From: Candidatus Heimdallarchaeota archaeon
GTDB taxonomy: Archaea > Asgardarchaeota > Heimdallarchaeia > Heimdallarchaeales > Heimdallarchaeaceae
Length of the DNA stretch: 18,301 nucleotides
Direction: 5' to 3'
Assembly (NCBI GenBank): GCA_019057375.1
Contig: DXJF01000111.1
Span: 1 to 18,301 of the forward strand
Position 1 is the first letter of the stretch. Every line of letters begins with the position of its first letter. Under the pieces are notes generated by a model that saw only the letters and a list, made by a program, of their open reading frames with translations, was not told the DNA's origin and did not search any database. The translations under genes were made by a program, and so were the position numbers. This document shows, piece by piece, positions 3,840 through 4,209 of this stretch.

Positions 3840-3890
3840 GGTTTTCCCAAAAGGGTTTTCTGCCTGAACAGGAAGGGCATTCTAACTCGA
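3840..3890. repeat. Direct repeat copy R3, which is also the left arm of the structured element
   Basis: GGTTTTCCCAAAAGGGTTTTCTGCCTGAACAGGAAGGGCATTCTAACTCGA; core identical to R2. Confidence 0.95.
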
Positions 3891-4147
3891 TGCTTCGGGG
3901 TTGCGGTTGAGGGGGGTTCCAGGATCTGGTCAAGCAAGACCATACCTTTCTGGCAGACAGAAGATGTCTGGTCCTTTTTTTCAGACAAAATAAGTGTCTG
4001 ATTCCAGACCGAAGTCTGGTTCTGGGGGATTTCAGGCTTAGGAGGTCTTAACTAAGCCCAAATGGGGGTTCAAACCATCTAAAAAAGGGGTTCAACCTTG
4101 TCCCTGAGCATCGGATATCTCTTCCTGTTCAGTTTGCAGTCCCTTTT
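3849..4147. ncRNA. Unclassified ~300-nt GC-rich structured element (ncRNA or MITE/ssDNA hairpin element); strand unresolved
   Basis: Nested complementary segments: 3849-3855/4141-4147, 3860-3863/4136-4139, 3864-3875/4121-4132 (12 bp perfect), 3888-3894/4107-4113 and 3905-3910/4092-4097. Internal hairpins at 3927-3942, 3954-3970, 3981-4001, 4004-4019 and 4035-4058. 143/300 GC, against about 28% in the next 60-nt line I counted (4201-4260). Confidence 0.65.
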
Positions 4148-4209
4148 TTGACCTAACCATTTGGCTCCTAAATAGCCTGCCATTAACCAAATAAAGTTGC
4201 CCTTGAACA

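Follow-up and report, generated by a model that had tools for sequence, protein, structure and literature searches.

What is encoded by the GC-rich, multi-branched element at positions 3849-4147 of contig DXJF01000111.1 from Candidatus Heimdallarchaeota archaeon (family Heimdallarchaeaceae, assembly GCA_019057375.1), and from which strand is it read? A preliminary description of this stretch of DNA (18,301 nt, positions 1 to 18,301 of the contig, hereafter the window) had proposed either a novel archaeal non-coding RNA (ncRNA) or a miniature inverted-repeat transposable element (MITE) with imperfect terminal inverted repeats, and had reported conflicting strand evidence. According to our analysis, the element is a real, dedicated ncRNA gene that lies on the minus strand, and the stem closing it has the geometry of a bulge-helix-bulge (BHB) motif. 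We consider it likely that the transcript is processed by the splicing endonuclease EndA and by RtcB into a ring of 276 nt. Coordinates of the features discussed below are compiled in Table 1.

Copy number and genomic context distinguish a gene from a mobile repeat. The count of genomic copies, one of the checks named at the outset, yielded a single full-length element in the 3.47-Mb assembly, and full-length homologues, again one per genome, were found in 23 of 24 genomes of the genus (g1). Eighteen distinct g1 sequences align over an invariant core, and four further genera (g2 to g5) have homologues. Whole hairpins have been inserted or deleted between homologues while the core stayed fixed, which is the pattern expected of a structured RNA. 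In every g1 genome, and in g3 and g5 as well, the gene next upstream encodes the proteasome assembly chaperone PAC2; in g3 and g5, PAC2 is down to 56-63% amino-acid identity and the RNA core is unchanged. The interpretation as a MITE, or as another mobile repeat with imperfect terminal inverted repeats, draws on the long inverted termini and on the partial copies nearby; these copies, however, are direct repeats of one end only, the full-length element is single in every genome, and its position beside PAC2 is fixed in three genera. The fixed synteny together with the unchanged RNA core excludes a MITE, and we therefore attach next to no probability to this part of the preliminary description. 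Its other part, the novel ncRNA, is borne out by the homologues and by the compensatory changes, promoter and terminator described below.

The distribution of the gene is narrow. A sequence signature, GACCTCCTRA-N6-16-CCCCAGAA, was matched by 24 of the 30 genomes of the family, each time in a single copy and with all five genera represented, and was found in none of 369 genomes of other Asgard families; a reversed control pattern gave no match. A covariance model of the ~100-nt core matched in 25 of the 30 family genomes and in none of 52 genomes from other families of the class. As detected, the RNA gene is thus confined to one Heimdallarchaeota family (24-25 of 30 genomes).

The structural observations of the preliminary description were reproduced. 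An interrupted closing stem is present and encloses six hairpins, one of which carries the C(UUCG)G tetraloop at 4004-4019, and the hairpin plus T-rich tract at 3831-3859 was likewise recovered. The BHB character of the closing stem, a 5' leader and duplications of the gene's 3' end had been overlooked. The element (3849-4147) forms a GC island of 48% in an AT-rich background (flanks 32%, genome 33%), comparable figures from the same genome being 50% for the signal recognition particle (SRP) RNA and 41% for the RNase P RNA. When positions 3840-4150 were folded, the minus strand reached z = -6.8 and the plus strand z = -4.0, and on either strand 0 of 100 shuffles were equally stable.

The RNA matches no described family; no Rfam family for it was found, and literature searches revealed no paper describing it. 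A covariance-model search of the window against Rfam, also named as a check beforehand, yielded no match at gathering score, and what appeared at E<=10 was noise; two of these noise matches (E>4), to SNORA18 (minus strand, 3761-3891) and group-II-D1D4-3 (plus strand, 3812-3920), overlap the 3' end of the predicted ring only. ARAGORN detected 0 transfer RNA (tRNA) or transfer-messenger RNA (tmRNA) genes in the window, and this identity was therefore rejected. Archaeal SRP RNA (RF01857) and archaeal RNase P RNA (RF00373) were rejected as well: the former had no window match at E<=10 and the latter no window match, and both RNAs are encoded on other contigs of the genome, at C145:74273-74580 and C60:1896-2217 (150 bits), respectively. 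The earlier remark that tRNA, SRP and RNase P signatures are absent therefore holds. One could argue that the covariance models missed a divergent or circularly permuted known RNA (SRP, RNase P/MRP, 5S or tmRNA-like), because BHB circularisation allows permuted genes (PMC4731332) and Rfam models are blind to permuted order. We regard this as very improbable, since the ring body (3920-4133) shows no partial Rfam match on either strand even at E<=10, the genome has normal SRP and RNase P RNA genes at other loci, and ARAGORN was negative. Across the 3.47-Mb assembly ARAGORN reported only 20 tRNA genes, six of them intron-bearing and 109-131 nt long, which is consistent with many interrupted tRNA genes escaping detection.

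The conflict over the strand was settled by the promoter, the T-run and the distribution of G.U pairs. Upstream of the gene on the minus strand, the sequence AAAAAAGTTTAAATA(G/T)GT is found in 18 of 18 distinct g1 homologues, ~65-70 nt before the closing stem and at a near-constant distance from it, and the promoter box was likewise seen in each of the four remaining genera (one locus read per genus). The promoter resembles the (A)AAGTTTAAA boxes that precede tRNA and SRP RNA genes in the same genome. The upstream flank of the plus strand varies among genomes, and promoter conservation is seen on the minus strand only. The preliminary description had likewise placed a transcription factor B recognition element (BRE) and a TATA box upstream on this strand; a conserved pair exists, at 4210-4225, and the TATA-like stretch beside the stem is not the conserved promoter. 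The gene consequently extends ~40 nt past the end noted before. The spacing from the TATA box puts the predicted transcription start near 4188, a position that is further supported by the conserved start region TTATTTGGT, and implies a leader of ~55 nt that lies partly outside the span first described. The leader sequence is kept within the genus only, in contrast to the predicted ring, which is the best-conserved part of the locus.

At the opposite end, a T-run follows directly after the stem in every homologue. The T-run within the 3' strand of the outer helix likely doubles as a terminator, and T-rich sequence continues beyond it to about 3826. Counted on the minus strand, G.U cells of the alignment outnumber A.C cells by 11 to 1 in the central helix and the helices P1 and P2, and by 56 to 6 in the whole consensus fold of the genus. 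Because the conservation of promoter and T-run and the excess of G.U over A.C agree, the gene is assigned to the minus strand, and the plus-strand reading, for which the preliminary description had also found features, was rejected.

Read on the minus strand, the 5' side of the closing stem runs AAAAGGG-A-CUGC-AAA-CUGAACAGGAAG and the 3' side CUUCCUGUUCAG-GCAG-AAA(A)-CCCUUUU. Two 3-nt bulges lie on opposite strands with exactly 4 bp between them, and each is placed 3' of its strand of the central helix, as are the bulges of tRNA introns. This BHB geometry (AAA, 4 bp, AAA) recurs in five genera with differing helix sequences (24 sequences). The AAA of the 5' bulge is invariant in 24 of 24 sequences examined, and the 3' bulge varies to UAA in genus g2 and to AAC in one g1 genome. 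The central helix reads AUGU/GCAU in g2, CUAC/GUAG in g5 (inner helix CUGGACAGG/CCUGUCCAG), GUGU/GCAC in g4 (inner helix CCAGAUAGGAAG/CUUCCUAUCUGG) and CUGC/GCAG in g3 (inner helix CUGAACAAGAAG/CUUCUUGUUCAG), with CUGU/GCAG as a further variant. Beside the 3' bulge, the outer helix is paired in g2 (8 bp, fully paired) and in g3 and g5 (4 bp each), and it is G.U-rich and weak in g4.

The covariation of these helices was assessed on the collected homologues, as had been suggested initially, and they proved to be kept through compensatory changes. In an alignment of 22 sequences, 93.6% of the cells of closing stem and BHB pair, compared with 39-47% when the partner columns were slid, and both sides have changed in 15 of the 29 pairs, a value reached by 0 of 500 shuffles. 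All cells of the central helix are paired (100%, two compensatory pairs). P1, the inner helix, has 99.2% of its cells paired and shows compensatory changes across genera in 4 of its 12 pairs, and P2 is paired in 100% of cells, with two compensatory pairs; its 6 U.G cells are specific to the minus strand. Pairing is lowest in the outer helix (77.8%), where both sides have changed in 7 of 8 pairs. By-eye inspection of the internal loop between P1 and P2 revealed no fitting kink-turn, C/D box or H/ACA box.

The enzymes required are present. The genome encodes a two-subunit splicing endonuclease, with two EndA paralogues of 188 and 190 aa (PF01974, 99 and 55 bits) from genes on contigs C37 and C47, and one RtcB (PF01139, 554 bits). 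Asgard EndA is reported to be an (alpha-beta)2-type enzyme with a loop insertion that gives broad BHB specificity, and to tolerate relaxed motifs (PMC5829648). From the BHB motif, its covariation and the presence of both enzymes we infer that the RNA is cleaved and circularised. Transcription would start ~26 nt downstream of the BRE and TATA box (about 4188) and terminate in the T-run that follows 3849. The two transcript ends would then pair to form, in succession, the outer helix, a 3-nt bulge, the 4-bp CUGC/GCAG helix, the opposite 3-nt bulge and the 12-bp inner helix. The tRNA-splicing endonuclease would cut within both bulges, RtcB would join the ends so that the conserved body forms a covalently closed ring, and the short leader and trailer would be discarded. 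BHB cleavage takes place after the second nucleotide of each bulge, so the excised RNA is predicted to measure 276 nt, and it is probably as a ring of this size that the RNA is released. Folded as a circle, the predicted ring reaches -95.7 kcal/mol (z -6.65), and the predicted rings of relatives comprise 219-290 nt, with the predicted junctions GCAUUA|ACUGAAC in g2 and GCACAA|ACCAGAU in g4.

Several observations weigh against such a ring. The own genus has A.A or A.C next to the 3' bulge, leaving the outer helix imperfect and the motif slightly relaxed. The exact 28-nt ring junction had 0 matches in metagenome contigs; a degenerate 21-mer of the junction covering four genera had 19, all of them in unrelated long contigs and at chance level. 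Junction-crossing peptides were found in a collection of 5.8 billion proteins neither in the sense frame nor for the antisense open reading frame (ORF). Because the collections searched are mostly DNA assemblies, this absence of the junction says little. The ring might furthermore be a short-lived intermediate that is opened again, as happens with 16S ribosomal RNA (rRNA).

These points would suit a linear structured ncRNA, in which the BHB-like stem would do no more than keep the ends together or guide their trimming, with a ring neither made nor retained. The negative junction searches, the imperfect outer helix of the own genus and the reopening of archaeal 16S rRNA circles (PMC12918454) are all compatible with it. 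We nevertheless judge a linear product unlikely, though it is the alternative to be taken most seriously, because the exact 3-4-3 geometry is invariant over five genera despite the changes in the helices, which is needless for a plain closing stem, and because leader and trailer are poorly conserved, as discarded exons would be.

Table 1. Features of the minus-strand RNA gene, its predicted processing and its duplicated 3' end, in coordinates of the window.
Feature	Positions	Strand	Details
Archaeal promoter	4210..4225	-	BRE-like AAAAAAG (4224-4218), then TATA box TTTAAATA (4217-4210)
Predicted 5' leader ('5' exon')	4134..4188	-	includes 5' strands of outer helix (4149-4141) and central helix (4139-4136)
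Predicted circular RNA, 276 nt	3858..4133 (4133->3858)	-	predicted junction ...GCAGAA joined to ACUGAAC...; longer form, CCTGTTCAGGCAGAA joined to ACTGAACAGGAAG
Closing stem	3849-3855/4141-4147; 3860-3863/4136-4139; 3864-3875/4121-4132; 3888-3894/4107-4113		paired segments
Outer helix, 3' strand CCCUUUU	3849..3855	-	pairs with AAAAGGG (4141-4147); A4140 opposite A3856
5' bulge AAA	4133..4135	-	predicted cut after second A; predicted ring starts at 4133
Central 4-bp helix, 3' strand GCAG	3860..3863	-	pairs with CUGC at 4136-4139
3' bulge AAA	3857..3859	-	predicted cut after 3858
P1 inner helix, 5' strand CUGAACAGGAAG	4121..4132	-	pairs with 3864-3875
P1 inner helix, 3' strand CUUCCUGUUCAG	3864..3875	-	pairs with 4121-4132
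P2 helix CGAUGCU	4107..4113	-	pairs with 3888-3894
Six hairpins inside closing stem	4080-4060, 4059-4034, 4019-4004, 4001-3981, 3970-3954, 3953-3919	-	
Hairpin GGGCUUAG/CUAAGCCU	4034..4059	-	loop with invariant GACCUCCUAA (4047-4038)
Duplicate 1 of 3' end	3063..3118	-	93% identical to gene 3' end; bounds cassette 1 (223-aa ORF, 3783->3112)
Duplicate 2 of 3' end	2526..2567	-	86% identical, older, P1 complementarity decayed; bounds cassette 2 (124-aa ORF, 2960->2586)

The nearest parallel known is the SRP RNA of Thermoproteus (T. tenax / T. uzoniensis; Plagens et al. 2015, PMC4731332), a stable RNA with documented BHB-dependent circularisation. The Heimdallarchaeota RNA is alike in being a stable, structured ncRNA of ~300 nt with a dedicated gene, the ends of which form a splicing-endonuclease site, and in its release and circularisation by the tRNA-splicing machinery, which is predicted in our case. 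It differs in that the Thermoproteus RNA is a permuted SRP RNA of known function with proof from RNA-seq, whereas the RNA studied here has no family match, is not visibly permuted and is known from sequence. Archaeal tRNA introns and the processing stems of pre-rRNA share with it an hBHBh'-like geometry, the predicted cut positions and an excised piece that is expected to be circular. In contrast to these, it is the excised piece that would here be conserved and presumably functional, the 'exons' being a leader and a trailer that are disposable, and the own genus has an A.A beside the 3' bulge. The SRP RNA gene of the same genome (L029:1501-1808) is enclosed by a long stem with two 3-nt bulges (AAC, AUG) on opposite strands; as read here, these are only 3 bp apart, a BHB-like rather than demonstrably canonical arrangement.

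The 3' end of the gene has a second peculiarity. Its last ~56 nt (3846-3901), comprising the 3' end of the predicted ring, the 3' cut site and the trailer, form a duplicated unit. Three copies of the 3' end are found in the window as direct repeats spaced 541 and 783 bp, and each interval holds one co-oriented ORF. Direct repeats thus bound single-gene cassettes, and in the manner of integrons or of attachment (att) sites their content and order vary: the cassettes c1, c2 and c3 differ in order and number among relatives, the 124-aa and 275-aa proteins are conserved there at other positions and in another order, and the arrays of relatives contain up to five copies over about 16 kb. Contigs often end inside the element, which is explained by a hypervariable cassette locus, marked by the gene, at which assemblies break. 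In this genus, we read the last ~56 nt of the gene as the place at which single-gene cassettes accumulate, leaving behind decaying copies of the 3' end. Larger rings, for which the duplicated 3' halves would act as alternative BHB partners, were considered and are unlikely, the older copy matching P1 at only 7 of 12 positions.

The 223-aa ORF (3112-3783, minus strand) has a signal peptide and a C-terminal anchor and is predicted to encode a secreted or membrane protein. Paralogues of it stand directly after three successive copies of the 3'-end repeat in the array of a relative. No Pfam match was found for this family of putatively secreted, C-terminally anchored proteins of ~220 aa, which looks like a fast-evolving family of surface-protein cassettes. 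In the relative, its members are located at L078:3261-3929, 6375-7049 and 7184-7828; the members of the family, that of the window included, are 31-58% identical to one another. In the same relative (G001), five paralogues of ~510-545 aa of the NosD/right-handed beta-helix type, in tandem or nearby, are encoded in the variable stretch downstream of the RNA gene (L078:8838-15233 and 630-2231).

At the far end of the array in the window, a 275-aa protein (1605-2432, minus strand) is encoded, the N-terminus of which is a long acidic repeat rich in E. Other genomes of the genus encode this protein near the array as well, with 67-89% identity. Its C-terminal part weakly matches PF07508 ('Recombinase'), a domain of large serine recombinases, with 13-16 bits for the own copy and 21.4 bits for a relative's copy at a cut-off of 21.1; a catalytic resolvase domain was not found in this protein. 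Stable-RNA genes are likewise duplicated at their 3' end on the far side of the insert in tRNA and tmRNA integration sites, and integron arrays likewise consist of tandem single-gene cassettes. The present locus differs from them in that no integrase domain was found either among the window's ORFs or within 19.7 kb of G001, in that the cassettes measure 0.5-3 kb, and in that viral contigs do not carry the site, a 19-mer of which (searched for as a viral attachment site, attP) had 0 matches there.

The att-like duplication of the 3' end raises the question of whether the whole element might act as DNA, either as a recombination region of the attB type or as a protein-binding array with the CAGAC...GUCUG palindromes as binding sites. 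A CAGAC/GTCTG stem is indeed common to three of the hairpins, and the frequent contig breaks inside the element would fit as well. The compensatory changes, however, keep pairing and not sequence, the G.U pairs are strand-specific, and promoter and terminator are conserved. In g4, moreover, the RNA gene is present and equally conserved although no cassettes accompany it. A purely DNA-level role is therefore highly unlikely in our estimation. In the complete g4 genome, a gene for the ribosomal protein eS30 (MGHGSLQKAGKVRKQTPKV..., recognised by eye) lies directly downstream of the RNA gene (L076 approx. 575-700, reverse strand).

Regarding the function of the RNA, one hairpin is of particular interest. 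The loop of the hairpin at 4034-4059 shares 8 nt, ACCUCCUA, with the anti-Shine-Dalgarno 3' tail of the 16S rRNA of the same genome, GGAUCACCUCCUA. On the minus strand, its stem displays 38 G.U against 0 A.C cells, with modest covariation. The features conserved across genera are P1, P2, this hairpin with its GACCUCCUAA loop, the CCCCAGAAC stretch after it, several (G)AACCCC motifs that are unpaired, and a U-run. In this genome, the Shine-Dalgarno (SD) motifs GGAGG and GGTGA are most frequent at -14 to -9 relative to the start codon, which indicates that SD pairing is used. The ring might accordingly act, as a stable ribonucleoprotein or as a regulator, by binding to purine-rich ribosome-binding sites or to proteins with a preference for its C-rich or U-rich motifs; this reading is speculative and rather doubtful, and we favour it only weakly. 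Less probable still is the more elaborate proposal of an abundant circular, multivalent anti-SD and C-rich decoy that would tune translation initiation, with the 3' end of its gene doubling as an integrase-less attachment site for cassettes of fast-evolving secreted-protein genes. Two points speak against an anti-SD role: the idea draws on an identity of just 8 nt, and no mRNA is conspicuous for extended complementarity to the loop, TAGGAGGTC being unenriched before start codons.

C-rich, anti-SD regulatory RNAs of bacteria are exemplified by RNAIII and the Rsa type of Staphylococcus aureus. The Heimdallarchaeota RNA is similar in its unpaired C-rich motifs and in a loop complementary to the consensus of ribosome-binding sites. 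The likeness, however, concerns a possible mode of action only, as there is no homology, no specific targets were found, and domain of life and predicted circular form differ.

Two further sequence similarities were observed. When 4060-4095 is read on the plus strand, the antisense of the (U)UUGAACCCCC motifs of the ring is GGGGGUUCAAA, which equals the T-stem plus T-loop sequence of tRNAs of this genome (GGGUUCAAAUCCC); this may be fortuitous, may reflect a potential for pairing or may be a vestige of the RNA's origin. Contig C12 (minus strand) contains two copies of GAUGGAUCACCUCCUACGUU ~5.6 kb apart, one of which is the true 3' end of the 16S rRNA. The second is preceded by AT-rich, non-rRNA sequence and is thus a stand-alone copy of the 16S tail together with the first part of the spacer.

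No known archaea are more closely related to eukaryotes than Heimdallarchaeia, whose repertoire of ncRNAs is, to our knowledge, almost unexplored. If the ring is real, it would represent a new class of stable circular RNA that is family-wide, strongly conserved and equipped with its own strong promoter. It would also constitute a new use of the tRNA-splicing machinery beyond introns, rRNA and SRP RNA, and the invariant copy of the ribosome's mRNA-binding tail provides a testable lead to a role in translation.
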